A stretch of 27,785 nt of DNA from a virus. Lineage: Duplodnaviria; Caudoviricetes. Below the pieces are notes generated by a model. The model saw only the letters and a list, made by a program, of their open reading frames with translations. It was not told the origin of the DNA and did not search any database. Each line of letters opens with the position of its first letter. Position 1 is the first letter of the stretch. The stretch is from positions 1-27,785 of IMG/VR virus record IMGVR_UViG_3300034072_000915; one strand, written 5' to 3'. This document shows, piece after piece, positions 1 through 17,615 of the stretch. The translations under genes and the position numbers were made by a program.

Positions 1-17
1 TGTATATTATGTTAAAT
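1..17 (+). other. dif: dif site (partial): 6-bp spacer TGTATA plus XerD-binding arm TTATGTTAAAT; the XerC arm lies left of the window
   Basis: Bases 1-17, tgtatattatgttaaat, are identical to the last 17 nt of E. coli dif (GGTGCGCATAA-TGTATA-TTATGTTAAAT). Confidence 0.85.
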
Positions 18-202
18 CAAAGGGATCGTTTTTAACGCCGTATCACACCACTATAGCCTGACATATTTTTATCTGTTCCCCAAACAGAAATTCTATTAAT
101 TTGGCAATTCCGCCTTAATTTCGCGTTTTAACACTGATTTTATTCAGTTTTCTCTTGAGGCTGAAAATTCGTTTTTAATAACCAAATGGAATTTATAGAA
201 AT

Positions 203-586
203 ATGGCAATGCAAATAAAATCTAAAGACGATACCCATTTATTGTTCAACGCCGGCTTTATGAAGACCGTGATCACCAAAAAATCGGTGCGCTCTGAACC
301 TGATCTGGTCAAAATCGCTGAGTTCTTTTTCGTCACCAGGCACACAGTACGCCGTTGGCTTCGCAATGGCCTGCCGCCAAAAGTGGCGCACCAGCTCAAA
401 ATGCTAAGCTCCGGCCATCTGCTGCCGCCACCTTGGCGACGCGCTCAATTGGCCATTTGTGCCGAAGGCGTGATTTTGCAAAATGGCCGCATCCTTGACC
501 TGGCCTGCATTCAGTTCTGGCCGTTTATCGTGCCGCACGTCGACTGGGGCCGCGTGCCTGAACTGGTCAGAATGCGGATGAATTAG
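203..586 (+). CDS. Small phage regulatory protein with an HTH-like segment (DUF3653-like)
   Basis: 127 aa. LVKIAEFFFVTRHTVRRWLRNGLPP is HTH-like, followed by LPPPW...GVILQNGR, which resembles DUF3653-type phage proteins. The start could be the ATG at 260. Confidence 0.55.
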   Translation: MAMQIKSKDDTHLLFNAGFMKTVITKKSVRSEPDLVKIAEFFFVTRHTVRRWLRNGLPPKVAHQLKMLSSGHLLPPPWRRAQLAICAEGVILQNGRILDLACIQFWPFIVPHVDWGRVPELVRMRMN

Positions 587-759
587 CCACACTGCACGCC
601 TTGGCCCCTTATTTTTATTTCATTTTTAAAGTGGGCTAACTTGTTGTATTTATTCAGGTATTTAAAAACACATTTTGCCGGCACTGTTTTCAAAACCTCA
701 CGGAATCCACAGAAAACACAATGGAATGAATCACTTAGCTTTGCCGGCATCACTCAAAC

Positions 760-1129: not shown

Positions 1130-2002
1130 TCAGCTGGCGTCTATCACGGCATGCAGGTCTATTTCGTGGATTATCGTAATCGGATGGCCGTTCTTTTTCA
1201 GCTTAATGGCTTCGTCAATTTTACTGCCGTAACTGCCGAACTTCCATTGCGGTTGGCCTTTGCTGCCGATCACCAGGTATTTTAACTTTGTGGTGATGGC
1301 ATCAGTGACTGTGCCACCCAGCGCGGTGATCACCTTCTTAAATTCTGCCCGACTGTATCGCGTCGATGCGCCGGTAAAACAAAACACGCCGGTTACATCG
1401 ATGTGCGGGTTTTTCTCGCAAAGGTTGTTGTCGTTCACTGTTGGGTTGGTGATTGTTTTATCGTCCAGCATTGACACGAATTCACCGAAAAGGCTCAGCA
1501 GTTCTTTTTGTTCCTGCTGGTCGATATGGTTGTCTTTTAGCACCCGGCCAATTTTGTTGCAGACTTCATCATATGGGTATGAGTTTTCCAGGTGGCTGTG
1601 TTCAGCAAGCCATGCCGATAGGCCTTCCAGCTCCTTCCCTGTCACAACACCGTCTGCAGCGATGCCGGCCAGTAACGTATGCAGCCGCTGAATATCCGCG
1701 GTGATGTTGCTGAAGTATTCGTGGGCTGCCAGTGAGTTGCATGTGAATTTGATTAAACTCAGCTCGTGCGGTGTCAGAACGCCATCGGAAATAACTTCTG
1801 CCACCAGCGGTATCAATTTGTCATAGGGTGGCTTTTGTTCGTTAATGCGGTGGTCTTTAATCCAGTTCTCTAAAAACTGCACTTCGTCATCGTTGATTGA
1901 ACCATCGATGGTGATGCCTTCAATAATGCCTAACAGTGAGTTCAGCGACTTTTCAAAATCAGCTTTGTTTTCATAGCGGGAATTGTCTTGCTGCGGGCTC
2001 AT
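1130..2002 (-). CDS. BRCT-domain cargo protein with two N-terminal TerB-like helical repeats
   Basis: The C-terminal FCFTGAS...GGTVTDAITTKLKYLVIG...W...YGSKIDEA...IIHE is a BRCT signature. The N-terminal GITIDGSINDDE and GIAADGVVTGKE repeats are TerB-like. The ATG at 2002 has AAGGA 7 nt upstream; the ORF track starts at 2044. Confidence 0.8.
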   Translation of the reverse strand: MSPQQDNSRYENKADFEKSLNSLLGIIEGITIDGSINDDEVQFLENWIKDHRINEQKPPYDKLIPLVAEVISDGVLTPHELSLIKFTCNSLAAHEYFSNITADIQRLHTLLAGIAADGVVTGKELEGLSAWLAEHSHLENSYPYDEVCNKIGRVLKDNHIDQQEQKELLSLFGEFVSMLDDKTITNPTVNDNNLCEKNPHIDVTGVFCFTGASTRYSRAEFKKVITALGGTVTDAITTKLKYLVIGSKGQPQWKFGSYGSKIDEAIKLKKNGHPITIIHEIDLHAVIDAS

Positions 2003-2149
2003 TTGATTGTCCTTATCTGTAGTTATTTTGTATCCCGTCATCAATAGCGGAACATAACTACACTGCAGCAGAGTTTTATGATGGTCAATTGTGTTTATTT
2101 ACAGTATCCACTGTATTTGCTGTCGTCTTTTCGCCTGGTGGTGTAGATG

Positions 2150-2183: not shown

Positions 2184-3980
2184 TTAAAGCCGTGGTTTGG
2201 TGGCGCCGAACGTGATTTGGCCGTTCAGTGGAAAGAACGTCAGGCCGGCTGAGTCTTTGGCCACGCATTGGTGGTTGTAACTCTGTGATAAATCCGCGGT
2301 GTCATCTTCCGTCAGCTGGATTTCAATCAGGCCGGCGCTGAACTCAATGCCCTCACCCATTGATTTTGTCACCAGTACCTGGCCGGTGCGGCCGTACAGT
2401 TCATACTTGGCTTCGCTGATCCCGGTTACCGGCTCGCCGTCGATAGTGTGTTCAATCTGAAGCAGCGCACTGGCGCCCTGCTTAAAGTTTAATTCCTGCA
2501 TATAACCCCCGCCGCGTTGTGTTTTCAGCTCGATTTTGTGCCGCGATGCTGTGTGGTAAATCTTTTTGGTGATTGACCGTGATTCGATGCGCCGGATATA
2601 CACGGCCTTTTGCAAAATGGTATTGACCCGGCTGGTGCCTGCCGTGGCGGTACATTCTGCAGTTGCGCGCCCTGCGCTTTGGCGGTTCTGGCTGTTGATG
2701 GCCGTTGCCGTTGTGACAGCTGTAGCCGCCTGGGTGCTGCTTCCCGATGTGCTGCGGTGCTGGATATTGCCAAGGTCAACGGTATTAACCCAGCTGGTAC
2801 TGGCAATAAAGCCCGCGACTGATAGAACCTGGCCGGCGCTTTGCCGGTGCTGTTTGTTGCTAGGCGCAGTCTCTGCGTTGCCGGTGGCTGCCTGTGCACT
2901 GGTGCCGCTGGTCTGCCTGTGCTGGCTGTTCAGTGCTGTGGTGGTAGTTGTTGCCGTGGCCGATTGCGTAGCGCTGCCCGATGTTGACCGGTGCTGCACC
3001 TCGCCAAGGTCAACGGTATTCACCCAGCTGGTATCTGCGATAAAACCCGCGACAGACAGCAGCTGGCCGGCGCTTTGCCGGTGCTGGTTGTTGAGCGGTG
3101 CTGTGTCAGCCTGTGCAGAAAATACCAGGCCGGCGCTGCCTGCGCTGGTTGTATGCTGGCTGTTGGTCGCCGTGCTTTCTGCGGTGGCGGCGGCGCTTTG
3201 TACTGCAGTGCCGGTTGTAATTTTGTGCTGGCCATTGAGCGGTGATGTGTCAGCGGTGGCTGTTGCTGATTGCTCAGCGCTGCCCGCGGTAGCCTTCAGT
3301 TGGCTGTTGTTTGCCGTGGTGTCTGCGGTGCCGGTTACTTGTTGGGTGGCTGTGCCGCTTGTGATTTGGTGCTGTGCGTTTAATGCAGCTGTGCTGGCTG
3401 CTGCGTTAAAAGCCTGGGTGGCAGTGCCGCTGGTGCTTTGGTGCTGGGTGTCGCCGCCACCATCGTAGAAAACCCACTGTGAATCAGTGCCGTTTTGCAC
3501 TGATACAGTCAGAGTGCCGAGCGGGTCTGCCACTGTATTTCCTGTCGGTGGAAATTGCAGCGCATGTGTTCCTGCGTTATCGACAATAGTCAAATCTGTT
3601 ATTGTTAGGTTTTGAAAAACCTCGCTATTGAAGTTGAGACGATTAAATAAAACGAATCCACCACCTACGCTTGCCGAGTTAACCTGAAAGCTAATAACGT
3701 CACCGGCTACCGCATTTTTTGCATAAGTTTCAAAGGACTTTGATACACCGTTTATTTTAAAATTGCTGGCATTTGCAGGACTAAACCAAGATCCTCCGTT
3801 TCCGTACAAATACGAATTACCTGAAATATACCTGCCATCGAACAGAAACCAGTACGCCGAGTTCGGCAAGGACGGCATATTGGTCAGTAGTTTAAAGCTA
3901 ATAGTGACATTTCCTGATAGGCCAGACACCACTATTGCTCTGTTTCCAGCTGAATTTCCGGTTGCGTATCCGTGAGCCAT
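2184..3980 (-). CDS. Repeat-rich fibre/appendage protein: beta-rich N-terminal domain, 11 Ala/Thr/Ser/Gln repeats, C-terminal BppU-like domain
   Basis: The ATG at 3980 overlaps the upstream stop (TAATG). A GGGDT linker is followed by QH..xxG repeats and a C-terminal ~105-aa Ig/BppU-like segment (QGASALLQIE...LTEDDTADL). Confidence 0.65.
   Translation of the reverse strand: MAHGYATGNSAGNRAIVVSGLSGNVTISFKLLTNMPSLPNSAYWFLFDGRYISGNSYLYGNGGSWFSPANASNFKINGVSKSFETYAKNAVAGDVISFQVNSASVGGGFVLFNRLNFNSEVFQNLTITDLTIVDNAGTHALQFPPTGNTVADPLGTLTVSVQNGTDSQWVFYDGGGDTQHQSTSGTATQAFNAAASTAALNAQHQITSGTATQQVTGTADTTANNSQLKATAGSAEQSATATADTSPLNGQHKITTGTAVQSAAATAESTATNSQHTTSAGSAGLVFSAQADTAPLNNQHRQSAGQLLSVAGFIADTSWVNTVDLGEVQHRSTSGSATQSATATTTTTALNSQHRQTSGTSAQAATGNAETAPSNKQHRQSAGQVLSVAGFIASTSWVNTVDLGNIQHRSTSGSSTQAATAVTTATAINSQNRQSAGRATAECTATAGTSRVNTILQKAVYIRRIESRSITKKIYHTASRHKIELKTQRGGGYMQELNFKQGASALLQIEHTIDGEPVTGISEAKYELYGRTGQVLVTKSMGEGIEFSAGLIEIQLTEDDTADLSQSYNHQCVAKDSAGLTFFPLNGQITFGATKPRL
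2619..3446 (-). repeat. Intragenic tandem repeats: nine 24-aa and two 30-aa units, including a 234-nt duplication
   Basis: Units start QHQ/QHR/QLK etc. gccaaggtcaacggtatt occurs at 2769 and 3003 (offset 234). Confidence 0.9.
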
Positions 3981-4678
3981 TACACAGCACTCATCGTGGC
4001 ATGAAGCAGATATTCGCATTTCCATCGCAGCTTACGTGGCACGCCATAATAAGGCAGTTGCGCCCGATACTGCACCGGCGCAAGCAACCCATGTATAGCC
4101 TGCGCGTGATACCACTCTCCATCTGCGCCTTGCCACTGCACTACAATGTGCGTTGATTCCGGTGCTGCTGTGTTGAGCTGCACTTGCAACCATTGCGCAG
4201 TGGTTTCCTCGATTTCATGCCACTGACCATCAAGCTGCACTGCGCGAGCAGCAACGACATCAGGCAGTGATACGTCTGCGAATGGGCGCTGTTTCCGGTT
4301 TGCCAGTGCATGAACCGCATCGCGGAACGCGGTCATTTTTGCAGACAGCTCCGGAATGTTCTTTATCATCATATCCAGCATCAGCAAATTGCCATCGCCA
4401 GCGGTCGTGCCTTCGATGAAGTTAAACGGATGGTTGCCTATAATGCTCTTATTCACCGATGCCATTTTGTGACGGAACGGATGGTCTTGCGTTGCTGCGA
4501 TGTCATCAATGAATCCAGTTAAATCTAACTCAGCGAACTTCTGATTTACCGTGGTCGCTGGCAGCATGACGCCTTCAGGTGTGGTGGCATTTTTTAGCGC
4601 ATCTAAAGCCTGTTCATCAGTCAGCGCCGCATACTCTGGTTTTGATAATTCTGCAATCAGCGTTTTCATAGTGCGCAC
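3980..4678 (-). CDS. Hypothetical phage protein (appendage module)
   Basis: 232-aa ORF translationally coupled to both neighbours. The N-terminus ELSKPEYAALTDEQALDALKN is typical of phage fibre-associated proteins. Confidence 0.7.
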   Translation of the reverse strand: MRTMKTLIAELSKPEYAALTDEQALDALKNATTPEGVMLPATTVNQKFAELDLTGFIDDIAATQDHPFRHKMASVNKSIIGNHPFNFIEGTTAGDGNLLMLDMMIKNIPELSAKMTAFRDAVHALANRKQRPFADVSLPDVVAARAVQLDGQWHEIEETTAQWLQVQLNTAAPESTHIVVQWQGADGEWYHAQAIHGLLAPVQYRAQLPYYGVPRKLRWKCEYLLHATMSAV

Positions 4679-4679
4679 C

Positions 4680-5054
4680 TTATGGGTTGTCGCGGATCAG
4701 TATTGTTGTGGCTGCATGTACAGTAAAACTGCGCTCGGTGGCGTTGCCGGTGAAATTAAATGGTGCATCCGGCACGATGTAGCCCAGATAGGTGGCGTTT
4801 TCCCACAGCCCGATAAACTGGGCGTTTTGGTTGTTTGTCAGGTGCAACGAAAAAACTACATCGGCATTGAGTGCCGATTCTGCTGCAGTGCCGTTTGCTT
4901 CTGGTGCGTTAAATACGCAGTTTTGCCGGGCGTATGGTGCATCGGTCAGTTCAGAACCTGCGGCCGGATTGGCGCCAGTACCTGGGTTGGTGGCATGCAG
5001 CGACATTTTGTTGGCTGCGTTGATTGCTTTGCTGTTGCCTTGGAAATTAAACAT
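4680..5054 (-). CDS. Small minor tail/fibre subunit (SLH..PG...E....YARQ family)
   Basis: 124 aa with the motifs MSLHATNPG, GSELTDAPYARQ and FIGLWE...YLG. An RBS, GAGG, lies upstream. Confidence 0.65.
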   Translation of the reverse strand: MFNFQGNSKAINAANKMSLHATNPGTGANPAAGSELTDAPYARQNCVFNAPEANGTAAESALNADVVFSLHLTNNQNAQFIGLWENATYLGYIVPDAPFNFTGNATERSFTVHAATTILIRDNP

Positions 5055-5081
5055 GGTGTACCTCGTTTTGTTTTCTGACGT

Positions 5082-6707
5082 TTAGGTGGCGACTAACGGC
5101 TGCAGCGTGTCGTGCAGATTGGTTGCCTGAGTTTTGCGGCCAGTCATGTCTGTGGCGATGTCCGGCGCTTGTGACAGAGTTGAACCGACTAAATGTTTGT
5201 GTTTGGCGCAGTGGTCAGCCAGCTGCGACACGCACTGCATCAGCTGATCTAGCAGGTTGTAGATGTTTACGGTATCGGTACCGGCCCAGTGCGTGGCGGC
5301 TTCAAAGCGCTGCAGTTCTGCGGCGACTGAGTGGCGTATTTTGCCGATGGTTTCTGTCAGATCACCGGCTGTTGCCGTGCGCATGTTTCCGAGCGCGCCC
5401 AGTGTCAAATCGTCACCGGCCAGCACATCGACTGCGCCCAGCGCTTCAATGGCCTTTTTGCCCGCCACCTCTTCGATGGAATGCTGTTTCACTTTGGTAT
5501 GCATCGTGCCGGCGTGTATGTCGTACCTGTCGGCATTTGTAACCTTGTGATAGGCGCTGTGCTTTTGCTGCTGATCTGTGCTGATGGTTTGGTTTCCAGC
5601 AGTGTCGGTGCGCTGAAACACTTCGGCGCGCTGCTGCTGCAGCTGTTCGCCGGGTTCAATGGCCGGCATTGAAAAGCCAGTCCCCAGCACGGTGCGGATA
5701 AACGGCTTGTCGGCACGGCCATAGGCAAAGCCAATTTCTACCAATGCGCCTTCTAAAGGGTACTGCAGCAAGCCTTGCTCTGTGCCTGCAAACATCACCG
5801 GCAGCGCAATCGCCTGATACACCGGTACTGCGGTGTCTGGCTGGCCGTTTTCGTCCAGCAGCTGCACATCCACGGCATAGCGTGGGCGGTATGGGTTGTT
5901 GATGTCCCCTGCTGCAGCAAAGTCAGATATGGCGACCACAGTTGCAAAGCGTGGTAAGTGATACCCGCCTGCCAGCTCCGGAAATGCGGCTTTTACCTGG
6001 CGTTCCAGCTGGTTGTTGTCGGCGGCATGCGTTGCCCAGGTGATGGTCATGGTGTCGCCGGAAAGCTCTACTTGGTTTATCCGGTTGTTATTAACCAACG
6101 CGCCCGGGCGCATAACCGGCATGGCCAGTAACTTCCAGTTGTTGTTGCTTTGCTGCTGGCTCAGTTCCTTTTGAATTTCTACTGGCCTTGTGGCCCAGAA
6201 ACATTGCTGGTAACCGCCCACATAAATCTGACCGTCTTGCTGCTGGTACCAAACGCCATCCGGTACCGCAAAGGCCCGAAACAGGTTATTCAGCAGCTGG
6301 TAGCCGGTGCCCTGTGAAGTGAAATTAGCAATAGGCGTGTCGGTGTAGCCTTGCCCAGCTGGAATGATAAAGCTCAGGCCGGTATCTTCTGCCAGTTTTG
6401 TGATGACCTGGCGCATGGTGGCGTGGCGGATCGATACCGGGTACCGCTCAGCCAGAATGCCTGATAATTCCCGCACCATGATTTTGTTGGTGCCGTTACC
6501 CGCCGGCGTTACCTTGCTGACATAGCCGGTGAAGTAGCGCACCAGCTGATTGTTGTAGCCGATATCAAGGCTCACCAGCTGCCCTTTGCTGACGTCGCCT
6601 TTAACCGTCATGATGCCGCGCCCGCCGGCTGATAGTTCCAGCACAATATGGTGCGTCACTAATTCAGGTTGGTTGCTGCCAATGGTCAGCCGCTTGGTCA
6701 GCTTCAT
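5082..6707 (-). CDS. Baseplate hub/spike fusion (HP1 last-tail-gene type)
   Basis: 541 aa. A hub-like N-half is followed by the OB-like PYRPRYAVDVQLLDENG...GALVEIGFAYGRADKPFIR, beta-repeat spike segments and an HKH tip motif near the C-terminus. Confidence 0.8.
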   Translation of the reverse strand: MKLTKRLTIGSNQPELVTHHIVLELSAGGRGIMTVKGDVSKGQLVSLDIGYNNQLVRYFTGYVSKVTPAGNGTNKIMVRELSGILAERYPVSIRHATMRQVITKLAEDTGLSFIIPAGQGYTDTPIANFTSQGTGYQLLNNLFRAFAVPDGVWYQQQDGQIYVGGYQQCFWATRPVEIQKELSQQQSNNNWKLLAMPVMRPGALVNNNRINQVELSGDTMTITWATHAADNNQLERQVKAAFPELAGGYHLPRFATVVAISDFAAAGDINNPYRPRYAVDVQLLDENGQPDTAVPVYQAIALPVMFAGTEQGLLQYPLEGALVEIGFAYGRADKPFIRTVLGTGFSMPAIEPGEQLQQQRAEVFQRTDTAGNQTISTDQQQKHSAYHKVTNADRYDIHAGTMHTKVKQHSIEEVAGKKAIEALGAVDVLAGDDLTLGALGNMRTATAGDLTETIGKIRHSVAAELQRFEAATHWAGTDTVNIYNLLDQLMQCVSQLADHCAKHKHLVGSTLSQAPDIATDMTGRKTQATNLHDTLQPLVAT

Positions 6708-7273
6708 GCCGTAGCCTGCTCAGTCGGTGCGCCAATGGCGTTATCGATGTTTTTCAGAAACTTCTCAATCGATGACATTTCCACCTGTGGCGGTGCTTCG
6801 CCGCCAATGGCTGCTGTCGGAATGACACTGGCTGTCTGATCGCTGGTTTGCGCGGTACTGGCTGCCGCTTTGGGTTGGCGCTGCTCGGTCACTTCCGGCA
6901 CGCTCAAATGCTCGCGTAGCGAAAAGCTCACTTGCCATGCCATTAGGGTTTGATGTTCTGGCGCCGATACTGTGCCGTGAAACTTCACTTGCCGGATTTT
7001 GACGGTGCGCCCGATGGTCGCGCCAAGCCGGCGCACCACTCTGTTGCCGCTTGCGTCTTTGGCGCTCGCCAGTTCAAACAGCCGGGCTAACTGGGCGGCA
7101 TTTGTAAATGGAATTAACCCGCTAATGCGCAGCTCTTTTGCCTTGTCGCCCTGTTCGCTGCTTCCGGTCGCTGATGTCTGTCCGGACATATCCTGATCCG
7201 CAAGCTGCATGGACAGCTCCATTTTGCAGCTCTTTAAATTAATCAGCTCACCGTCTAAGGCTATTTGGCTCAT
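6704..7273 (-). CDS. Baseplate complex / tube-initiator-like protein
   Basis: 189 aa with DMSGQTSAT...QGDKAKELRISG and WQVSFSLRE. Conserved position before the hub gene in HP1/K139-like phages; 4-nt overlaps. Confidence 0.7.
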   Translation of the reverse strand: MSQIALDGELINLKSCKMELSMQLADQDMSGQTSATGSSEQGDKAKELRISGLIPFTNAAQLARLFELASAKDASGNRVVRRLGATIGRTVKIRQVKFHGTVSAPEHQTLMAWQVSFSLREHLSVPEVTEQRQPKAAASTAQTSDQTASVIPTAAIGGEAPPQVEMSSIEKFLKNIDNAIGAPTEQATA

Positions 7274-8148
7274 TGCAACAATTCCTGTAAGAACGTCAGC
7301 GGCAGCTGGCTGCTGATCACCAGGGCGACACTGACCGGCTGTTTGACCGGTGGCGCGGTGTTTTGTAATTCTGCCGCGAGTGCGGCGGCGCTGCCGTTAT
7401 AGGCAAATCGCCAGATACTGCCGGCAACATTGGCCAGCGCAGTTAAATCTGTCTGCAGCTGTGTGATCAGCGCTGTGCGTTTGCTCGCCAGTGCGGTGAG
7501 TTTCCCAAGTGGCGTGGCGGCGTCGCTGGCGAGGCTTTCCAGCTGGCCGATTTGCGCGCCCAGCAGCCCTTCTGCATTTCGCAGTGGCTGCAGATTCAGG
7601 TCGCTTTTTTGTGTCCAGCGTGGCGTCAGTGCCGGTTTGTTTTGCTGCAGTTTTTCAGCGGCCAAATTCGCTGCTTTTTGCAGTTGCCGCTGATATGCCA
7701 TCAATGCTGGCACGGCCAGCAGGTTACAAATTGGCGTCAGCTGGTTGATTAGCTGCGCCGGTGATGCAGCGCTTAGCAGCAGCACCAACGCATGGCTTTG
7801 GTTCGCCGGTGTGTGCCGGTCTGCGTTATCGGTGAGTTTTGCCGCCAAGGCGTTAATGGCTTGTTGCGTTGATAAAAAACCATCATCACCAATGCCATAC
7901 ACGGCTGGCGTCACTGCCAGTGTCTTGGCTTGCACCAGCAGGTTATTGAGCTCAGTGCGAAGGCCCAGCAGTGCTTCGGCTTCTTCGCTTAAGTCGTGCC
8001 GGCTCAGGCTTACTTTTGCTTCAGTCGCGGCCACTCTGCCAAGTGCAGCCGACATCACGCTGCCGACTTGGTTTAATACCGTGTCGGCGTCGTCTTTGAT
8101 GGCCTGTGCGCTCGCTGGCCAGCGGGCGTTTGCATTTACCCATGCCAT
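7270..8148 (-). CDS. Conserved hypothetical tail-region protein
   Basis: 292-aa helical, Ala/Leu-rich ORF coupled to both neighbours. Confidence 0.7.
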   Translation of the reverse strand: MAWVNANARWPASAQAIKDDADTVLNQVGSVMSAALGRVAATEAKVSLSRHDLSEEAEALLGLRTELNNLLVQAKTLAVTPAVYGIGDDGFLSTQQAINALAAKLTDNADRHTPANQSHALVLLLSAASPAQLINQLTPICNLLAVPALMAYQRQLQKAANLAAEKLQQNKPALTPRWTQKSDLNLQPLRNAEGLLGAQIGQLESLASDAATPLGKLTALASKRTALITQLQTDLTALANVAGSIWRFAYNGSAAALAAELQNTAPPVKQPVSVALVISSQLPLTFLQELLQ

Positions 8149-8570
8149 TAAACAGCGTACCTCAGCAGGTCTTTATAAAGCCCGTTCGGGTGGTTCGATT
8201 TAGGCAGTCTGAAAATTTCCGCAACCGCTTCGCTGCAGTATTTCTTTTTCTGGCTCTGCTTTAAAAACGGCACCCGGTAGCGCATTGCGCCGGTGTAGTC
8301 GTATTTCGCGCCACTGTGCTGCCAGAACCATTGCCAGGCGTCTTCTGCAGTGATGCCCATATCGACTGTCATCAGCAGCCAGTCTTTGGTGGCAATGTTA
8401 ATCAGCTTCACGCGCACCCCGCCGTCCATCATGCTGGCCGACACACACAGTGCCCAGCCGTTCGGGTAGTGCTGCAGCACCGCTTCCACATGCGAAAACG
8501 GCCCACCGGTCATGTCGGCAATGACGCGGTTGGCCAGTCGTTTACGGCCCTTGTAAAACGCTACCTGCAT
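8148..8570 (-). CDS. Permuted papain-like (NlpC/P60, YiiX/YaeF-type) peptidase/amidase
   Basis: His in FSHVEAV, then GAKYDY, then Cys in YCSE. This is the His-before-Cys order of permuted NlpC/P60 enzymes. Confidence 0.7.
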   Translation of the reverse strand: MQVAFYKGRKRLANRVIADMTGGPFSHVEAVLQHYPNGWALCVSASMMDGGVRVKLINIATKDWLLMTVDMGITAEDAWQWFWQHSGAKYDYTGAMRYRVPFLKQSQKKKYCSEAVAEIFRLPKSNHPNGLYKDLLRYAV

Positions 8571-8583
8571 GGTGACCTCTGCG

Positions 8584-8874
8584 TTATCCGTTAAAGGCTT
8601 CTTCTGCCTGAATTGTCAGGCTGAGAATTTCTGAGGCTCTTTGCGCTGTGATTAGGTTTTTGCTGACCAGCAGCTGCACGCCTTGTTGTGTATCAATCCG
8701 TGCTAAATCGATAAACGTCGCAGCTTCCTGATCCTTTAGCAGCACGCGCACAGTTGCATCGCTTTCTGCTGCCGTTTCAATGGCCACCTTCTCCGCAAAG
8801 GTAAATCGGTTACGAAATGCCAGCCGTGTGATGCGGCTATTCATAAATCCATCGTTCCACTTGATAATGCTCAT
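8584..8874 (-). CDS. Small tail-fibre-associated protein (probable assembly chaperone)
   Basis: ITRLAFRNRFTFAE...AATFIDLAR...LITAQRASEIL pattern, directly after the receptor-binding gene with a TAATG overlap. Confidence 0.65.
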   Translation of the reverse strand: MSIIKWNDGFMNSRITRLAFRNRFTFAEKVAIETAAESDATVRVLLKDQEAATFIDLARIDTQQGVQLLVSKNLITAQRASEILSLTIQAEEAFNG

Positions 8875-10025
8875 TATTTGATCCTCACATAGAACGCGGT
8901 GCCGATGTTTCCTAATGATGTTGGTTGTGTTCCTGCAAATGACGGGTTACCGGCATAAGCCAGTTGATTCCCAATCAAAACGCGGCCAGAACCAGAACCA
9001 GCGTCACTGCCGGTTGCAAGGAAACGGCCATCAGTAATATTCAGGAAAGTGGCCGTTGCATTACCTCCAACGCCATGCGGGTAAGGTCTCAGCTTGGTTA
9101 AGTCAAACGACTTGTAAAACAGGGTGTTGTTATTGGTGAAAATATAAAATTCGCCGTTGTACGAAACGTTTGCCAGACCAAGCGTTCCGGTTAGCACTTG
9201 CGTCCAGCTCCCCGTTGCGCCTGTCGTTGATGTATATACTCCGATGTTGGCCACAACCAATACAAACAGGTTATTCCCAGTAATTACCCGCGAGACATTA
9301 GTGCCGCCGCCTGGTGTTGTTACAGCGGTCCACGTCACACCGTTGTCTGTTGACCTTGAGCTTTGAGAAGCGGTGCTTGTGCCAACGGCCAGCCATACGT
9401 TGTTGTAAAACGCCACGGAAACCAGCGCGCTGGTTACATTCGACGTTCTGACCGTGTAGCTGGTGCCGTTTGCTGACGTCAGTATGGTTCCGCTCGCACC
9501 GACGATTGCCAGCAAGCCGTTTGCAAAGTTAATGGCATTCAGCGCGTTGGTGGTTCCTGACGTTCTTGGTGTCCATGTGACCGCATCAGTAGATGTCCAG
9601 ATCAGGCCGTTGCTGCTGACTGCAACCCATAGCGAAAGTGCAGAAACCCATTTCACGGCGTTTACATTTTGTGTGCCTGTGAGGCCAGACGGAACAATCA
9701 AACTGCCCCATGTAATGCCATTGTCTGTCGATACAGCTAACCCGCCCGGGTCGGTGCCGTTATGGCCGACAGCTGCAACAATCGTATTTCCGTTTGCTGA
9801 CGCTCCATTGATTGACCTGTTCGTGTATTCAAGGCGCTTTGCCCATAGCGTTGCACGGGTATGATCCCAATACGCTCCATCGAAGTTGGCCGGGTTGGTT
9901 TCTATGTATTCAGTTCTTAACCACGTGCCAAAATCGTCACTGATCTGAATAGGCATGTTATCCGGTAACTGTAATGCCGCACCGACCGGAAAAGAGCCAC
10001 CGCCGTTTAACAGGCTTAAATCCAT
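8874..10025 (-). CDS. Beta-propeller (BNR/Asp-box repeat) receptor-binding tail protein
   Basis: Repeated S/T-x-D-x-G-x-T-W motifs (STDNGITW, STDAVTW, SANGTSY, STDNGVTW). The start MDLSLL at 10025 follows the upstream stop at 10028. Confidence 0.75.
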   Translation of the reverse strand: MDLSLLNGGGSFPVGAALQLPDNMPIQISDDFGTWLRTEYIETNPANFDGAYWDHTRATLWAKRLEYTNRSINGASANGNTIVAAVGHNGTDPGGLAVSTDNGITWGSLIVPSGLTGTQNVNAVKWVSALSLWVAVSSNGLIWTSTDAVTWTPRTSGTTNALNAINFANGLLAIVGASGTILTSANGTSYTVRTSNVTSALVSVAFYNNVWLAVGTSTASQSSRSTDNGVTWTAVTTPGGGTNVSRVITGNNLFVLVVANIGVYTSTTGATGSWTQVLTGTLGLANVSYNGEFYIFTNNNTLFYKSFDLTKLRPYPHGVGGNATATFLNITDGRFLATGSDAGSGSGRVLIGNQLAYAGNPSFAGTQPTSLGNIGTAFYVRIK

Positions 10026-10027
10026 AA

Positions 10028-10843
10028 TTAAAATCCCCCTGCATACCGCAGCTGATTTGCTGCGACGCACTCAAAAATTAACGTCCCAGCTCTACTTGCT
10101 GGCAGCCAGTGATTCAGCTCGCTGACTCCATTTGGCAGTACAATATTCACGGTGCCCACAATGTCGATGCGGCCGGCTTTGGCCAGCTTTTGCACTTCAA
10201 TCACATCGCCTGGTATAAGGTTCGCGGCGTCTAACGTCACCGTTTTGGATTGGCCTTGGTCAAATACAATTATTTCGCGCTGGGCAGCGCCGGCTGCGGT
10301 GTAGTTGTTTGGGTTGTGCACCAAGTTGTGCGTGGCTCGCTCTTTTAATTCGTTAAGCTCTGCATTAATTGCGGCAATCTCAGCGCTAAAGTCATACATC
10401 CAGCTTTCTGCCGGCACGACAATTGGTACCCCGTTGGCAATGCCCAGATGTTCAATCACCATGTTGCGCACAATGACGTTGCCAACCGTTGCGCCTGCTG
10501 TTTTCACTTTCTGCGTCAGTGGCACATAGGCAAACATGACCAGCTGATCGCCGTTTACCGGATGGGTGTACACCAGGCCAATCCAGTTAAAGCTAAAATC
10601 CCCTACTTCTGTGCTGAGCATCTTTGCGTAGGTGACACGGTTGTCATCGATAATGCCGTGTCCCGTTGGTGGTGTTTCAAGTACCACATGTGCCGGTGCT
10701 GGCATTGGTTCGTTTGCCGGCTCTGGGTCGGTGTGCACCAGCCCCGGAATATTGGCGAATACAAACTTGGTAATTTCCAGCTCTGGGCCTGCGCCCACAG
10801 CTGCAGCAACCATGATTTCGCCGATGGTGGTTAAACGCGCCAT
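10028..10843 (-). CDS. Tail fibre proximal protein (gpH-like N-terminal baseplate-anchoring domain)
   Basis: ITKFVFANIPGL and VGDFSFNWIGL motifs of HP1-type fibre N-termini; follows gpI. Only 271 aa. Confidence 0.8.
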   Translation of the reverse strand: MARLTTIGEIMVAAAVGAGPELEITKFVFANIPGLVHTDPEPANEPMPAPAHVVLETPPTGHGIIDDNRVTYAKMLSTEVGDFSFNWIGLVYTHPVNGDQLVMFAYVPLTQKVKTAGATVGNVIVRNMVIEHLGIANGVPIVVPAESWMYDFSAEIAAINAELNELKERATHNLVHNPNNYTAAGAAQREIIVFDQGQSKTVTLDAANLIPGDVIEVQKLAKAGRIDIVGTVNIVLPNGVSELNHWLPASRAGTLIFECVAANQLRYAGGF

Positions 10844-11427
10844 TAACTGGCCCTCGCGGTTAGTGTCTGAAAATCTGCGTTGACTTCGCTGCCCGCCAAA
10901 ATCATGGCAGCCGCTTTGTTTGAAACGTACTCATACCGGCGACAGGTGCGACCATAGTCCTGAATGATGGTACCCATCAGCGCGGCGCTTGAAACTGTGG
11001 TGTCATCAATTTCAATCGACACCACATCCCAGTCTTTATCCGGCTGGCGCTCTGCGATGCTCAGGACCGGCACACCCAGCCGGTTAAAGATGTTGATAAA
11101 TCCCTGTGTGCTGCCGGCGTCTTTGGCATTGACAAAGGCAAAGGCCACGCGCTTGCGATAGAGCCACAGCGGTTCATCACGAAAACGGGTAATGCGCCGC
11201 TCCCATGCCAGCAAATGCAACACATCCACCGAACAGGTCAACGGGTCACTTTGTGTCAGCGGCCACAGCAGATAACCCCTTACGCGCTGCCAAAAACTCT
11301 GCATGCCGACTTTGAGCATGGCCGGTTCTTGCGGCTCCGGGCTTTCAGTTAACGTTTGGCCATCCATCCAAAACGGCAGGTTCAGCGCTTCCAGCTGCGG
11401 GCTGTTTTCATCATGGTTGATGCTCAT
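10843..11427 (-). CDS. Baseplate wedge/tail protein (gpI-like)
   Basis: DPLTC...LHLLAWER.I.RF..EP..LYRKRV..A..NAKDAGS...YGRTCRRY. Confidence 0.85.
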   Translation of the reverse strand: MSINHDENSPQLEALNLPFWMDGQTLTESPEPQEPAMLKVGMQSFWQRVRGYLLWPLTQSDPLTCSVDVLHLLAWERRITRFRDEPLWLYRKRVAFAFVNAKDAGSTQGFINIFNRLGVPVLSIAERQPDKDWDVVSIEIDDTTVSSAALMGTIIQDYGRTCRRYEYVSNKAAAMILAGSEVNADFQTLTARAS

Positions 11428-12611
11428 GGCGCCACCCCGTTATTGGTGATGGTTAAGCTGTCGATGCGTGGCAGCACTAAGGCGCTTTCAATATCCTCGG
11501 TGGTAAAGCGGATACTTTTTAAGCCCGGCAATGCGCTGTGAAGCTCCTGCACCAGTTGAGAAAAGGCAAACACACTTTGTGGCAAGGTGCGGGTGATCTC
11601 CGGATACAAATCTGACTCCCGAAACGCTGCCCGTACCCGCGCTTCAATGCCATCTTCCAGCGCGGCGATTTCTTCCACGCTCAGGTTTTCTCGGTGCCAG
11701 AATTCCAGCTCGATATCCGCCGGCGCTGCCGGAATGGCAATGGCCAGTAAATCGTCGCCGTGGCCGTGATAGCCTTGGTTCGTGATGTAGTCGTTGATGC
11801 TGTCTATCAGACTGGATGGAGTTTCACCGACCGGCATCATGACAAAACAGTTTGCTGTGCCTGGCCCGCGTGGGGCGTTGTGCTCAAAAAACAGCAGATC
11901 ACTGCGAATGCCGGCAAAGCTGGCAATGGCTGCCCGATATACCGCATCGATATGGTAGTTCCCGACGCTCGCAAACTTATCGCGGATACGCAGCGCCAGT
12001 GCTTCGTCTGTTTCAACGTCAGCACCGGATACCGTGATCCAGTTGGCCGCGTTGGTTACTGAGTCAATGCCCGGCACCACATCCTGCATGATGTTAAAAA
12101 AACCAGCCGGCAGGTTGTAACCGGCGCCCGCTTCCAATGCCTCACACAACACCTGCGCGCTTAAGGTACCTGCCGGAATTAACGTATTTTCCAGCACCGT
12201 GACCCGGTATACCGCGCCCAGTGTGCTGTCTGTTTTGATGATGGTGCCGGCGGCAACGACGATTGGCGCGTTGACGTCCTGTTTAGTGAAAACAATATTG
12301 CCTCTGGTTTTGACCGCCGCTTTTCGCGTCAGGCCTACATCCCACGCCTTTAACTCTAAATACTTTTGTGTCGCTGTTGCGGCAAACATGGCCGGCAGTA
12401 CGTGGCTGGCCAGCAGCGTTTTAATCAGCCACAGTACCGGCGTAACTACGCAAGCAGAGAACAGCCGCCAAAATGGGCTCATGGCGCTGTTGTTGGAAAT
12501 GATGGAGTTTGCCGCGGTGACGTCGGCTTCTAACAATGCCACCACGCCATCGCTGGTGGTTGGCATGCCCTGCTCTGACAGCAGTTTTTCAAAATTAACT
12601 GACGGCCGCAT
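11424..12611 (-). CDS. Baseplate J-like protein
   Basis: 395 aa with A...GAGYNL, GADVETDEAL..RIR and APRGPGTAN; canonical position. Confidence 0.9.
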   Translation of the reverse strand: MRPSVNFEKLLSEQGMPTTSDGVVALLEADVTAANSIISNNSAMSPFWRLFSACVVTPVLWLIKTLLASHVLPAMFAATATQKYLELKAWDVGLTRKAAVKTRGNIVFTKQDVNAPIVVAAGTIIKTDSTLGAVYRVTVLENTLIPAGTLSAQVLCEALEAGAGYNLPAGFFNIMQDVVPGIDSVTNAANWITVSGADVETDEALALRIRDKFASVGNYHIDAVYRAAIASFAGIRSDLLFFEHNAPRGPGTANCFVMMPVGETPSSLIDSINDYITNQGYHGHGDDLLAIAIPAAPADIELEFWHRENLSVEEIAALEDGIEARVRAAFRESDLYPEITRTLPQSVFAFSQLVQELHSALPGLKSIRFTTEDIESALVLPRIDSLTITNNGVAP

Positions 12612-12939
12612 TTAACGATACCTCTGTTGTTATGTCGCCAAATTCGTAAGTAGTGGCAGTGATCAGAATTTGCTGCTCGTTGTTGGCATCAATCTCAATA
12701 GTGCCTGGCACTAACCGCGTGTCTGTTTCTATCAACAGTTCCATCGCCGTATACACGTCATTGCGAAGGGCCGGACTGCGCTGTGCCAGCAGTCTGGTAA
12801 CTAATCCCGATTCCAGCAGCATGTGCTTGACGTCCTGCGCGATACTCGCCCGGGTGTTGATCAGCTCAGGCTGTGGCAGCGCATCTAATGCCAGTGCGCC
12901 TTTTTCGATAAACAGATCGCTGTATTTTTGCAGTGTCAT
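12595..12939 (-). CDS. Baseplate gpW/gp25-like protein (DUF2590 type)
   Basis: SIAQDVKHMLLESGL...DTRLVPGT...TATTYEFG, located between tape measure and J. Confidence 0.8.
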   Translation of the reverse strand: MTLQKYSDLFIEKGALALDALPQPELINTRASIAQDVKHMLLESGLVTRLLAQRSPALRNDVYTAMELLIETDTRLVPGTIEIDANNEQQILITATTYEFGDITTEVSLNAAVS

Positions 12940-15194
12940 GCTGTGAGTAACTCCTGCTGATCAGCCAGTTCTGCCAAGCTCCACTCTTTGGGCGGGTTCT
13001 GCACGATTACGTCGCCAAAGCTGAGGGTTTTACCGCTACTGACCGACTGCGTGGCTTTTCTTACCGCTTGCGCGGATGCAGCCGCCTGCTGGTTGTATTT
13101 CGGCGTAATGGTGCCGGCCAGCATGTCGGTTGCCACCGGCTTGATATCTACCTGCTGCTGCAGCTTTTCTGGGGTGTAAGGCTCTGGCAAATTGCGCTGC
13201 ACGTTCAGCTGCTGGCTTAACTGTTCCGGCACAAATGCGGCTGGCTTTACCAGTTGCAGGTGTTGCTGCTGGGTCATCGGTTCTGGCGCATAAGGCTTTG
13301 GCAAATTGCGCTGCACGTTCATCTGCTGGCTTAACGGCTCCGGCACGTAGGCGGCTGGTTTTACCAATTGCAGGTGCTGGTGCTGGGTCAACGGTTCCGG
13401 CGCATAAGGCGCTGGCAAATTGCGTTGCACGTTCAGCTGCTGATTTACCGGCTCTGGCAATTCCGTCTTTGGTAATAATCCGGCGTGTTTCGGTAATGCG
13501 CTGTTGAATACGCCGGTATCATTTGCCGCCTGGCGCTGCATCCACTCTGGCATGGCCTGCTGGCTTGGCATGTTTTCTGGCAGCTTCGTGGCGTTTTGCA
13601 GCTTCTGTGTATCCACTGGCCCGACGATTGGCTTAAGCTCGATGTCGACACCTGGCAAGGTGTTGAGCTTGCCAGCTATCCAGTTGTAAAAGCTGATGAA
13701 CTGGTTTTGGATGCCGGTTATCATTTCATCAAAAAATTCGCCAACCGCTTTTATCCAGCCCCATTCTGAAACCGTGGCTTTGAGTTCATCCCAGTAATAA
13801 ATAATCGCGGCGACCGCGACTATCGCAAGACCAATGCCGGCGATCAAAAAGCCGATTGGGTTTGCTGCCATCGCTATGTTTACAGCTAACGTCCACGCTC
13901 TCATGGTTTTCATGACTGCGGTGAATTTAGTGCCTGCCCATGCGGCAGCATCAGCGCCCAACTTCCATGTGGTCATCGCCATTGTTCCGGCGCCCATCAT
14001 GATGGTAAGCAGGCCGCCGGCAGCAACGGCCAGCATCAGGCCGATGCCGAGATAACCCAGCCAACGGCTGATGTTTGGGAATTTGCTGGTGAAGTCTATG
14101 ACCCCTTTGCTCATATCCGCTATTTTGCCGACGAACTCATTAAACGCTGGCAGAACGGCGGCGCCGAAGGCTGCCCGGATCACAAACCAGCTTTGTGAAA
14201 GTCGCTGGCTTTGGTCCGTCATGGCCGCTGCCATTTTTTCGGCTTGCTCCATGCCTTTGACTTTACCCAGCTGGCTGATGGAACCTGCCAGACCGTCGAC
14301 GTCGTTTAGCAGTAATTTCACCAGCGAAACGGCCTCTTGCGAACCAAAGGCGCTGGCCAGCTGATCACCTTCAGCCACGCTGATGGTGTCGCCATACTTG
14401 CCTTTGATTTTGTTCAGGATGTCTACCATTGGCAGCATATTGCCGTTGGCGTCAGCAAACTGCAGGTTGAGCGCCTTTTGCGCTTTACCCACACCGGCTA
14501 AAAATGATTTGTATTTGGTGGCCGACTCGCTGCCTTCCATGGTGGCTTGCAGGGTGCCCATGATGGCCATTTGTTCTTCGAGTGGTGCAAGGCCTGCCGA
14601 TGCGCCAAGTGCACCAAAAGCATCCGACATCTTTTTACCATCGGTTTTAAATGCCTGTACTGCAGTGGCAGTCATACCCGTGACGCGCTCAATCCAGGCG
14701 CCCTCGCCCATGCTTTTTGCATCGTTTTTAAAGATGCCGTACATGGTTCCCATGTAGTTGGTCACGGTGGCGGCATCCGCTTTTGTGGCTTTTGCCAGCA
14801 CGTTGGATGCCATGGTGAAACGGCTTAAATCAGCATCATTTAACCCGGTAATGGCTGACTGGATATCGTAGCTTGAGCGCACAAAATCAACGGCTGATTC
14901 GCCGTACTTCATGGCGTAGGCGTATGAATTTTCAGACAGCATTTTCAGCGCGCTGTCACGCACACCCAATGAGGCAACCTCGCCCAATGCCCGGTCCATT
15001 TCAATGGCCGGCATCAGCGCATTTTGCAGGGCAAAACCACTGGCCGCGACGCCACCAATCCCAGTGGCCATCTGCATGGTTCCAGCCTGATAGTTTTCGG
15101 CCAAACCATTTAACTTGTTGCTGATTTTGGCAATTGGCTTGGTGATTTGGTCTATCAAGCCAACGGTAAACATCAGCGGTGCAGGTAAGCTCAT
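12936..15194 (-). CDS. Tail tape measure protein (TP901-type core)
   Basis: 752 aa, Ala/Gly-rich. N-terminal LIDQITKP, hydrophobic ANPIG segment; follows the chaperone. Confidence 0.92.
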   Translation of the reverse strand: MSLPAPLMFTVGLIDQITKPIAKISNKLNGLAENYQAGTMQMATGIGGVAASGFALQNALMPAIEMDRALGEVASLGVRDSALKMLSENSYAYAMKYGESAVDFVRSSYDIQSAITGLNDADLSRFTMASNVLAKATKADAATVTNYMGTMYGIFKNDAKSMGEGAWIERVTGMTATAVQAFKTDGKKMSDAFGALGASAGLAPLEEQMAIMGTLQATMEGSESATKYKSFLAGVGKAQKALNLQFADANGNMLPMVDILNKIKGKYGDTISVAEGDQLASAFGSQEAVSLVKLLLNDVDGLAGSISQLGKVKGMEQAEKMAAAMTDQSQRLSQSWFVIRAAFGAAVLPAFNEFVGKIADMSKGVIDFTSKFPNISRWLGYLGIGLMLAVAAGGLLTIMMGAGTMAMTTWKLGADAAAWAGTKFTAVMKTMRAWTLAVNIAMAANPIGFLIAGIGLAIVAVAAIIYYWDELKATVSEWGWIKAVGEFFDEMITGIQNQFISFYNWIAGKLNTLPGVDIELKPIVGPVDTQKLQNATKLPENMPSQQAMPEWMQRQAANDTGVFNSALPKHAGLLPKTELPEPVNQQLNVQRNLPAPYAPEPLTQHQHLQLVKPAAYVPEPLSQQMNVQRNLPKPYAPEPMTQQQHLQLVKPAAFVPEQLSQQLNVQRNLPEPYTPEKLQQQVDIKPVATDMLAGTITPKYNQQAAASAQAVRKATQSVSSGKTLSFGDVIVQNPPKEWSLAELADQQELLTA
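13140..13457 (-). repeat. 114-nt (38-aa; two 19-aa subunits) tandem repeat in the tape measure C-terminus
   Basis: ggcaaattgcg(c/t)tgcacgttc occurs at 13186, 13300 and 13414. The protein reads PEPxxQQLNVQRNLPxPY / PEPxTQxQHLQLVKPAAxV. Confidence 0.9.
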
Positions 15195-15205
15195 GGGTGC
15201 CTCAT

Positions 15206-15403
15206 TTACTTGCCGCCAAAGGCGCGGTTAACGCCGTTGGCAGTGATGGCTTCTAACGACTCAAAGTGGTTTTTATGCAACCACAAGGCGCGGGCTATCG
15301 ATTGTTCGCTATCGTCTTCACCCGGCAGCCAATGCCGGCGCAGTGCCAGCATCTGTTCCAGCTGGTTGTTGTCCAGCGCTGCAACCAGCTCCGTTATTTT
15401 TTT
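15206..15403 (-). CDS. -1 frameshift extension of the tail assembly chaperone (gpE+E'-like)
   Basis: GTA-AAA-AAA-TAA ends the chaperone ORF. The -1 frame reads ITELVAALDNNQLEQMLALRRHWLPGEDDSEQSIARALWLHKNHFESLEAITANGVNRAFGGK* and stops at 15206, just before the tape measure. Confidence 0.8.
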   Translation of the reverse strand, partial: KKITELVAALDNNQLEQMLALRRHWLPGEDDSEQSIARALWLHKNHFESLEAITANGVNRAFGGK

Positions 15404-15660
15404 ACGGCGATTTCCAGCGCCGGCGAGAACTCTGCACCCAGCTCTGAGGCGATTTGCAGTGCTGCGCCTGGCGATTGTTCCAGCAATGCTTTGAAGTCTT
15501 CTTTTTGCTCAGCGTTGATGGTGCGCATCACTAAGTTGTGCGCTGATGCGGTCATCGATTCACGCCGCGCGGCCGCGTCGACAAATGCGTTGTGGTCTTG
15601 CGCCGTGACGTTAAAAGCAAAGTCAGTACCGGCGATGGTTAACACGATGGTCTTTTTCAT
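15394..15660 (-). CDS. Tail assembly chaperone (gpE-like)
   Basis: 88 aa ending LEIAVKK at a slippery site, upstream of the tape measure. Confidence 0.85.
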   Translation of the reverse strand: MKKTIVLTIAGTDFAFNVTAQDHNAFVDAAARRESMTASAHNLVMRTINAEQKEDFKALLEQSPGAALQIASELGAEFSPALEIAVKK

Positions 15661-15920
15661 GCTGCGTCCTTATCTCTTCTGTTGTTTAAAAGTTCTTTGA
15701 GGTTGTCGAACCCGTTTTTCATCTGCCGCTCGATGCGCTCACCCAGTTTTTCTACTTCAGATTTTGGCGAGTAATACTCGGCAACGTGGGTTTTGTGGTC
15801 GCTTAACTCTTTGCTGGTCTTGTGCACCGTGCCGTACAGGTGCGCAATCAGTGGCACCACTACTGCAAGCACCAGGCTTATCAGCCCCACAATCACCAGC
15901 AACCAGTTAGTTAATTCCAT
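15657..15920 (-). CDS. Small membrane-anchored lysis-region protein
   Basis: One N-terminal TM helix (WLLVIVGLISLVLAVVVPLIA) and a charged coiled-coil tail. Confidence 0.7.
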   Translation of the reverse strand: MELTNWLLVIVGLISLVLAVVVPLIAHLYGTVHKTSKELSDHKTHVAEYYSPKSEVEKLGERIERQMKNGFDNLKELLNNRRDKDAA

Positions 15921-15930
15921 GCCCGTTTCC

Positions 15931-16488
15931 TTACTTTTGCTGCGTTGTGGCCGCCTTGGTTGTGCCGCCCATGCTTAAATTCTTTTCCCGCTCGCTGGCG
16001 TCTTTGGTTGAACTCACCCAGTAGTAAACCGCAGCCGATACAAACGGCAGGAAGTTGCCCGACAGGTACACCAGCAAATCGCGGTTCTCTGGTGGTATTG
16101 GCATGTAAAACAGCACCGCCATCTGCGCGGCCAGCATCACTAGTAAGAAAATGGTGATGGCTGATGGCATCCAGTGGTCTTTATGGATGATCCGCGCCTG
16201 CTGCCGGTCCTGCAGTTCGGCTTTGTATTCTTCCATGGCTATTTTTTGCAGCTCCACATGGCTTTGGCGGATTTGCTCGCGCTCTTGTGCGGCCCACTCC
16301 TGCAGCTTTAACGCGGCGTTCGGGTCTTTCTTCAGCGCTGCTGCCACCGCTTCTGGGCTGTTGTCTGTGCCAATTGCGCCGGCAATTTGGCTGCCAATAC
16401 TGACGGCAAGCCCCACAGGCCCGCCCAATAACGGGGCGACTGAACCGGCAATGTTGCCGACTGTGCTTGCAATATCTTTCCAGTTCAT
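15931..16488 (-). CDS. Putative holin
   Basis: Gly-rich N-terminus (APLLGGPVG), a coiled coil, then two TM helices and YYWVSS. Overlaps the endolysin stop by 4 nt. Confidence 0.65.
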   Translation of the reverse strand: MNWKDIASTVGNIAGSVAPLLGGPVGLAVSIGSQIAGAIGTDNSPEAVAAALKKDPNAALKLQEWAAQEREQIRQSHVELQKIAMEEYKAELQDRQQARIIHKDHWMPSAITIFLLVMLAAQMAVLFYMPIPPENRDLLVYLSGNFLPFVSAAVYYWVSSTKDASEREKNLSMGGTTKAATTQQK

Positions 16489-17048
16489 ACGGTCCCCGCT
16501 TTGCAGTGTTGTTGTAAGTAATTGGCTTCGCGTTGGCGGCGGGTCACGTACCTGTCGCCAAAGTTATTGAGCTCCCGCACCATGGCCGCCGCGTCACCCG
16601 CGACAGCTGCGCGCCAGAAATTAGGGCAGCGCCTGGCTAAATCGCCATATTGAAACGCGACTGAGGCAATCACCGTTTGCATCGCTGCTGGTAACATGGC
16701 AAAGCCTGTCTCGGCGGCGCTGTCATATCGCTGTTCAAGTTGATTGATCAGTTGTTGCTTGACCGCTTTATCAATGGCCTGCGCCTCAACTTCAGTGATC
16801 TGCAACGGGTTGTTGACCAGCACAGCCAGTGCGTTATTGCGCTTATGACCGCAATAAATCGCCAGCTTGTCGACCAGTTCGCCATGCTCTGGCAGCAGCG
16901 CGACTAAATCACTGTCACTGCGACAGCCAAGGTCAAAACCGGTGGCAATGGTTACGCCTGAACTTGATTGCTCAGGATCCGGCACATAGCCACGCAGCGC
17001 AGGGCCGCCCTCTAATGACGAAATGAAATCAAAATCAACTGCTGCCAT
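16485..17048 (-). CDS. Endolysin, pesticin C-terminal-like muramidase
   Basis: DFDFISSLEG...GYVPD...SGVTIATGFDLG...QTVIASVAFQYG...RRQREA. The ATG at 17048 has AAGGTG 6 nt upstream; the track starts at GTG 17057. Confidence 0.88.
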   Translation of the reverse strand: MAAVDFDFISSLEGGPALRGYVPDPEQSSSGVTIATGFDLGCRSDSDLVALLPEHGELVDKLAIYCGHKRNNALAVLVNNPLQITEVEAQAIDKAVKQQLINQLEQRYDSAAETGFAMLPAAMQTVIASVAFQYGDLARRCPNFWRAAVAGDAAAMVRELNNFGDRYVTRRQREANYLQQHCKAGTV

Positions 17049-17121
17049 GGTCTTCACCTTTTTTCAAATCACAGCTGCAGCGCAGTCATCCGTGACTGCA
17101 CTGGGCTGTGTTATTTTTCGG

Positions 17122-17571: not shown

Positions 17572-17615
17572 TTTTAGTACTCCTACATGCTGCTCAATTC
17601 AAAGCTGGCTACAAG

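Follow-up and report, generated by a model that had tools for sequence, protein, structure and literature searches.

By which route does a tailed phage come to abut the chromosomal dif site, and which recombinase carries it there? The question is raised by the stretch of DNA analysed here (the window: 27,785 nt, a whole virus record), whose first 17 nucleotides combine the dif central spacer TGTATA with the XerD-binding arm TTATGTTAAAT into a 17-bp att core. The same spacer and XerD arm are printed for the dif sites of E. coli, Aeromonas, Shewanella and Idiomarina (PMC2731167, in its available part), the chance expectation of the 17-mer in a window of this length is 2e-6, and the arm is the sole XerD-arm match in the window at up to one mismatch, all of which bears out the initial annotation of an exact dif spacer and XerD arm. 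The record begins at the spacer, so that the XerC arm falls outside it. A scan of nt 1-1200 for promoters and terminators gave results near chance.

Phage genes adjoin the core without an intervening host gene, as first annotated: 27 of the 35 tested ORFs match PHROGs, comprising head, contractile-tail and lysis genes of the HP1/K139 type (Table 1). Judged by its genes, the window is an HP1/K139-type P2-like phage, whose host is probably Rheinheimera, to which the homologues of the first ORF point. It displays the hallmarks of the Peduoviridae, namely the P2-family capsid, scaffold, terminase, portal, contractile tail, gpA and Ogr; the integrase with a C/cox or cI/apl switch, a trait of that family in the available text of PMC3448106, is absent, and in relatives a P16/P15-like module stands in its place. 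Of gpA, which the initial annotation named, just the end of the gene lies within the window; the remaining early region, the repressor and the attR of this phage lie beyond position 27785.

Table 1. Features of the window, with positions counted from its first nucleotide
Feature	Position	Strand	Basis or remark
dif central spacer	1-6	+	TGTATA, opening portion of the att core
XerD-binding arm	7-17	+	remainder of the att core
Terminal gene, 127 aa, HTH and DUF3653-like part; P15/XafT-like, predicted Xer activator	203-586	+	hhalign to PM2 gp a, Atlas neighbours
Accessory gene with C-terminal BRCT domain	1130-2044	-	phrog_3989; also in G001, G002, G007
Tail fibre, baseplate and tape-measure genes, HP1/K139 type	2184-15194	-	PF25759, PF04865, PF10145, PF12571
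613-aa ORF with internal Thr/Ala/Gln-rich repeats	2184-4025		no Pfam or PHROG match
Tail chaperone, lysis genes, tail tube and sheath, connectors	15394-20325	-	PHROGs/Pfam
Pesticin-type lysin	16485-17057	-	within the 15394-20325 block
Small terminase, P2-family major capsid, scaffold	20431-23664	-	PF05944, PF05125, PF05929
Large terminase and portal	23832-26674	+	PHROGs/Pfam
Cro-like gene	26732-26947		occupies the portal-ogr interval
Ogr/Delta late activator	27203-27451	-	PF04606
gpA, C-terminal 106 codons only	27465-27785	-	76-80% identical to gpA of relatives

Several of these genes vary among relatives. The BRCT gene, with a possible function in DNA damage or defence, is retained beside the left end in the window and three relatives and replaced in a fourth (G003), and homologues of the 613-aa ORF differ in length and N-terminus (353 aa in G001, 628 aa in G002). 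The portal-ogr interval is a hotspot that holds a different toxin-antitoxin-type pair in each relative (L009:5074-5683; L011:4759-5408; L015:8195-8629; L289:9233-10093), and the early region of these dif-type P2-like phages features a DndB/ParB-like gene and varied DNA methyltransferases (L011:9814-10881; L286:3620-4654).

Integrated relatives display what lies to the left of nt 1 and at the opposite end, where the initial annotation had asked for a XerC arm and a second dif-like site, respectively. In all four true relatives first found (L001, L002, L005, L006), the homologue of ORF 203-586 follows the core at about 200 bp, and on its other side the core adjoins the XerC arm ATATCCCATAA, which completes a full dif; L003, L004 and L007 were left out as HTH-only matches. 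When 301 family genomes were searched with the end repressor, 14 had matches, and two of these (G217 and G007) carry further complete P2-like prophages. The four complete relatives measure 29-35 kb (G001, 34,166 bp; G002, 34,986 bp; G217, 29,183 bp; G007, 32,825 bp), and all have a full dif on the left and, on the right, a degenerate XerC arm (matching at 7/11 positions in G001, 4/11 in G002, and 5/11 in both G217 and G007) followed by the spacer and XerD arm. Identity between the two ends extends over exactly 17 bp in G001 and G002; the spacer is TGTATA at both ends in G001, G002 and G217, and differs in G007, where it is TTTCCA, again at both ends. Two relatives are partial, with only the right end in G026 and only the left end in G003. 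The G026 copy, whose tail region is interrupted by IS elements (L050:7109-9436, 13759-16056), is probably decaying.

The chromosomal place of these prophages is the terminus dif. GC skew switches at the locus, being positive in 4/5 windows to the left and negative in 4/4 to the right in G001, positive in 2/2 and negative in 8/8 in G002, and positive in 6/6 and negative in 5/6 in G039 (up to 2.1 Mb), and the few KOPS motifs aim at the site from either side in the same three genomes; together, the flip in skew and KOPS identifies the site. The prophage-free state is provided by G022, which has one dif between the host flanks that bound the G001 array (89-93% identity) and is therefore an empty site. 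The exact 17-mer is found in 18 of the 43 genomes of the genus, once in 15 and twice in 3, with other spacers in other members. The initial annotation allowed that proximity to dif might be incidental, with no XerC arm to the left, or with an unrelated att repeat and a conventional integrase; the XerC arm on the left, the dif-like far site, the missing integrase and the skew switch in relatives all speak otherwise. In a sample of 401 class-level genomes, eight have a P2 capsid, of which G001, the one examined, is at dif. The skew of G039:C1 (4.72 Mb) changes sign near 0.88 Mb and again somewhere from 2.1 to 2.5 Mb, which suggests very unequal replichores, whether from an inversion or as an assembly effect. 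Inoviruses of both polarities share dif arrays with P2-like and PM2-like prophages (L001:2730-9815; L012:1-7330; L048:1975-10551), and the left inovirus site in G001 has an apparent 8-bp spacer.

We found no tyrosine integrase (PF00589) inside the intervals of the four complete relatives, whose hosts carry 4-16 such genes elsewhere, and no serine-family recombinase (PF00239) in the intervals of G001, G002, G003 and G026 or in the window. None of 64 end and early-region ORFs, retained from 88 picked after shadow and short frames were dropped, matches an integration family. This leaves the retargeted integrase, one of two routes offered in the initial annotation, unsupported and favours the other, integration by host XerCD, for which G001 encodes both xerC and xerD. 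By contrast, the Pseudoalteromonas phage C5a (Peduoviridae), which has one of the nearest named capsids (66% identical; terminase 79%) and the same late gene order, is annotated with a site-specific integrase and excisionases, and its regulator gp11 has no match to the P16-like repressor.

Evidence for a rejoined attP comes from contigs of four runs (X1-X4) of one study, possibly the window's own source, with the low-share runs X5-X20 left out. In X1-X4, the phage contig starts exactly at nt 1, and nt 1-30 are overlapped by two different contigs. A 1,059-nt contig of X3 can be placed on the right end of the G026 prophage, where it covers the core, the repressor and part of the early genes. Thirteen letters overhang this placement and read, in reverse complement, as window nt 18-30; X4 has the same loose end. 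These junctions join the phage right end through the core to nt 18 and thus represent attP, which makes it likely that the window phage excises. In X3 the attP contig has a depth of 47.5, against 45.3 for the phage body and 5.4 for the other left neighbour, the two left neighbours are similarly split in X1 (103.5 versus 8.0) and X4 (103.1 versus 4.3), and host-flank contigs joined to the core have depths of 10.0 and 7.4. In X2 the split is 135.1 versus 66.5, with the host flank at 129. Contig depths do not equal cell shares, and head-to-tail copies would yield the same junction. The minor neighbours we infer to be attL.

The prophage ends are further marked by a pair of genes overlooked in the initial annotation, a P15/XafT-like gene (ORF 203-586 in the window) and a P16/RstR-like repressor at the other end, and this layout is met in the relatives. 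The corresponding PM2 products are labelled gp a and gp c in the PM2 record, and we take these to be P15 and P16, respectively. ORF 203-586 aligns with PM2 gp a (hhalign probability 88, E 3e-6), and its Atlas neighbours are DUF3653 clusters (0.89; 184/256 features) and the VC1465/XafT cluster (0.84), scores that, being below 0.9, serve as leads only. The link to the Xaf family is remote, since neither the ORF nor its 11 close and 7 distant homologues match Pfam DUF3653, to which PM2 gp a itself has a sub-threshold match, and since the ORF has no direct match to VGJ ORF136/XafV; its Pfam matches are to HTH families only, below cut-off. A tblastn search against named phages gave no match, the AlphaFold model (pLDDT 71) found none with Foldseek at E 0.001 in viral or PDB libraries, and a predicted complex of XerD with two copies of the protein scored 0.00, which speaks neither for nor against an interaction. 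The final gene before the right site encodes a repressor. This protein, about 100 aa long, has a match to PM2 gp c with 26% identity across 82 aa (E 4e-8), and phrog_4441 is common to the repressors of the relatives and gp c. A 13-kb PM2-like element in G039 displays the same junctions and homologues of both terminal genes. In G007, another Xaf-like gene takes the terminal slot; it is 47% identical to its counterpart in an inovirus of the G002 array, which suggests exchange among array members. Two short contigs of G372 (L294, L295) carry the repressor, a dif core with degenerate XerC arm and a homologue of ORF 203-586 in attP order, and are likely circular PM2-like phages.

Taken as a whole, these findings are best explained, at a probability that we put near 0.88, by a P2-like phage that combines a one-armed dif attP with a P16/P15-like module and crosses over by means of host XerCD, with the help of a predicted activator. 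On the sequences compared here, catalysis by host XerCD is highly probable, and the phage likely both enters and leaves the chromosome by XerC and XerD; we also favour, with less assurance, a role of the 127-aa terminal protein in activating Xer. XerCD would act on attP in its double-stranded form and complete the crossover, since the spacers on either side match, which allows both strand exchanges, and since no shared hairpin rebuilds the XerC arm. The 127-aa protein would activate Xer independently of FtsK and offset the poor XerC arm, much as XafT does for the poor XerD arm of TLC. The degenerate right site may limit unwanted excision during normal dimer resolution, and the intact left site would keep dif functional; with dif kept on the left, later elements could stack there, in keeping with the arrays of G001 and G002. 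The module was probably gained from inoviruses or double-jelly-roll phages in the same dif arrays, displacing the integrase cassette.

The crossover would still belong to XerCD if the terminal gene were a mere transcription regulator, with integration dependent on FtsK or on a basal XerC activity that replication resolves. The HTH-only Pfam matches of the terminal protein would suit such a role, PM2 P15 is called a transcriptional regulator in the available text of PMC12715192, and gp25 of the Burkholderia lineage discussed below has no detectable kinship to the terminal protein. Against this stand the fixed position next to attP, which in G007 is filled by another Xaf-like gene, the degenerate XerC arm, which would be ill suited to a XerC-first reaction, and the precedent of XafT and XafV, proven Xer activators that are both encoded beside attP (PMC6744903 and bioRxiv 2026.06.12.731946, in their available parts), so that we regard a purely regulatory role as rather unlikely.

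The initial annotation had suggested that gpA, by rolling-circle replication, might provide attP as a folded single strand or a cruciform, a route comparable to that of CTXphi. The phage does encode gpA, and in a comparison of six attP regions with crude 2-mer shuffles, those of G001 (z -4.1) and phiE12-2 (z -3.8) fold more stably, with G217 marginal (z -2.5) and no significant fold in G002, G007 and the G039 element. However, the XerC side or the core lies mostly in loops in the G001 and phiE12-2 folds, and within 150 bp the XerD arm itself is the only inverted match to a host-type XerC arm with fewer than three mismatches; a CTX-type hairpin attP rebuilding both arms, or a common fold rebuilding the XerC arm, was not encountered in the six regions. 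The identical spacer at both ends and the re-formed attP also differ from the irreversible integration of CTX (PMC6744903, in its available part), and the single-stranded route is improbable. Least probable of all, to the point of being nearly negligible, is a divergent phage recombinase that escaped detection, or one acting in trans, that targets a core overlapping dif. Several small early ORFs belong to no family, the host genomes encode other tyrosine recombinases, and some tailless dif prophages carry integrases (PMC11630473, in its available part); yet these early ORFs are shorter than 200 aa and differ among relatives, the core is exactly the spacer and XerD arm and follows the local spacer in two lineages, and the X3 contig passes from the core through the repressor to early genes within its length.

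The XerCD-based reading has close counterparts outside the tailed phages. Dif-type double-jelly-roll (PM2-like) prophages and CTX-I inoviruses share the trio of RstR/P16, XafT/P15 and a dif-like attP, with the genes terminal, and resemble the phage here in the 17-bp one-armed attP, the mixed tandem arrays and the lack of an integrase; they differ in being non-tailed and 7-16 kb long, whereas the phage described here is a contractile-tailed member of the Caudoviricetes of 29-35 kb, and in its available text PMC12715192 describes the module for non-tailed phages only. That source also widens the range of dif users, which the initial annotation had limited to filamentous phages and satellites, to double-jelly-roll phages; gokushoviruses belong among them too, according to the portions of the literature available. 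TLCphi with XafT and VGJphi with XafV are alike in that a gene of the activator type adjoins a dif-like attP, one arm of which is poor (PMC6744903; bioRxiv 2026.06.12.731946, in their available parts), although the homology of ORF 203-586 to Xaf proteins is remote and its activity a prediction. In the available text of PMC6744903, the TLC reaction is reversible and double-stranded, like the one proposed here, but in TLC the XerD arm is the poor one and dif is restored to the right of the element, whereas the phage here has a poor XerC arm and keeps dif on the left.

Among named phages, the best matches of the repressor are Burkholderia P2-like phages, which led to a second lineage. The phiE12-2 group (phiE12-2, GI15, PI-E264-2, PK23) comprises plaque-forming P2-like myoviruses without an integrase, as here (PMC2920897, PMC13026187, in their available parts). 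Their attP is flanked by the gene of an HTH repressor, which is 46% identical to that of G002, and by a terminal HTH gene, again as here. The group represents a different P2 branch, and its gp25 has no detectable homology to ORF 203-586. No integrase is annotated in phiE12-2, for which the available text of PMC2920897 (2010) places attP between gp24 and gp25 and suggests 'a different mechanism'. We found that this published attP is the reverse complement of the spacer plus TTATGTCAAAT, the latter being the XerD arm of the Burkholderia dif printed in PMC2731167 (available part). Among 51 virus records with gp25 relatives, 32 have enough upstream DNA, and the XerD arm lies within 400 nt upstream in 27 of these (3/306 control windows), accompanied in 24 of the 27 by a dif-type XerC arm; a P2 gpD gene lies downstream in 45/51, PF00589 is absent from the 18 records searched, and the phiE12-2-type junction occurs in 21 phage records, some of them duplicates. 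The available text of PMC2920897 and PMC13026187 calls the phiE12-2/GI15 site intergenic or non-tRNA and leaves Xer unmentioned, the latter, a 2026 Burkholderia paper, giving GI15 a non-tRNA location.

The terminase and capsid of the phiE12-2 lineage (45% and 33% identical to those of the window) are far less similar than those of the integrase-bearing C5a, which, on identities alone, suggests separate acquisitions. We lean towards the view that P2-like phages have, at least twice, given up their integrase cassette in favour of a portable module for Xer hijacking that filamentous and double-jelly-roll phages also carry. This single module would span three viral realms, include activators that act on an attP whose XerC arm is poor, and explain the integrase-free lysogeny of the phiE12-2/GI15 group, for which an explanation has long been wanting. 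Homologues of gp25 (33-34%) also lie next to dif in L116, an inovirus-like record, and in L197, which suggests a second family of attP-adjacent factors.

In a full-text literature search, which covers few subscription journals and no supplements, we met no account of Xer-mediated integration of a tailed phage at dif. The main text of a 2026 survey of 5,945 P2-like genomes (PMC13100340) contains neither dif nor XerC or XerD, and no tailed dif case appears in the available text of PMC9226527, PMC11630473, PMC3603311, PMC12860723, PMC3448106, PMC12482185, bioRxiv 633727 or bioRxiv 2026.02.19.706829; the DUF3653 survey of PMC6744903 (available part) may include unlabelled prophages of this kind. 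What is likely new, then, is a tailed phage on a dif/Xer route for which the descriptions we otherwise found concern non-tailed phages and islands alone. Xer hijacking has been viewed as a trait of small non-tailed elements, and its use by a lytic-capable myovirus of 30-35 kb would mean that neither size nor realm sets a limit. It would also offer a testable answer to phiE12-2-type integration, left open in the available text of PMC2920897. Such phages would be misclassified as virulent or defective by lifestyle calls based on integrases, and tailed phages could join dif arrays that hold inoviruses, possibly reshaping them on excision.

A scan of viral contigs for the 17-mer (24/64 parts) returned 121 loci, 80 of them with full flanks, whose matches belong to inoviruses or PM2-like phages; these 80 gave no additional structural genes of the P2-like type. 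The Ralstonia record ON170320 is an inovirus with host DNA. Weak terminase matches occur in 4 of the 26 longer records with the 17-mer. Four virus records (L127, L207, L193 and L139, from G064, G067, G072 and G077), 21-38 kb long, combine a full dif with weak matches to terminase and are possibly other tailed phages near dif.
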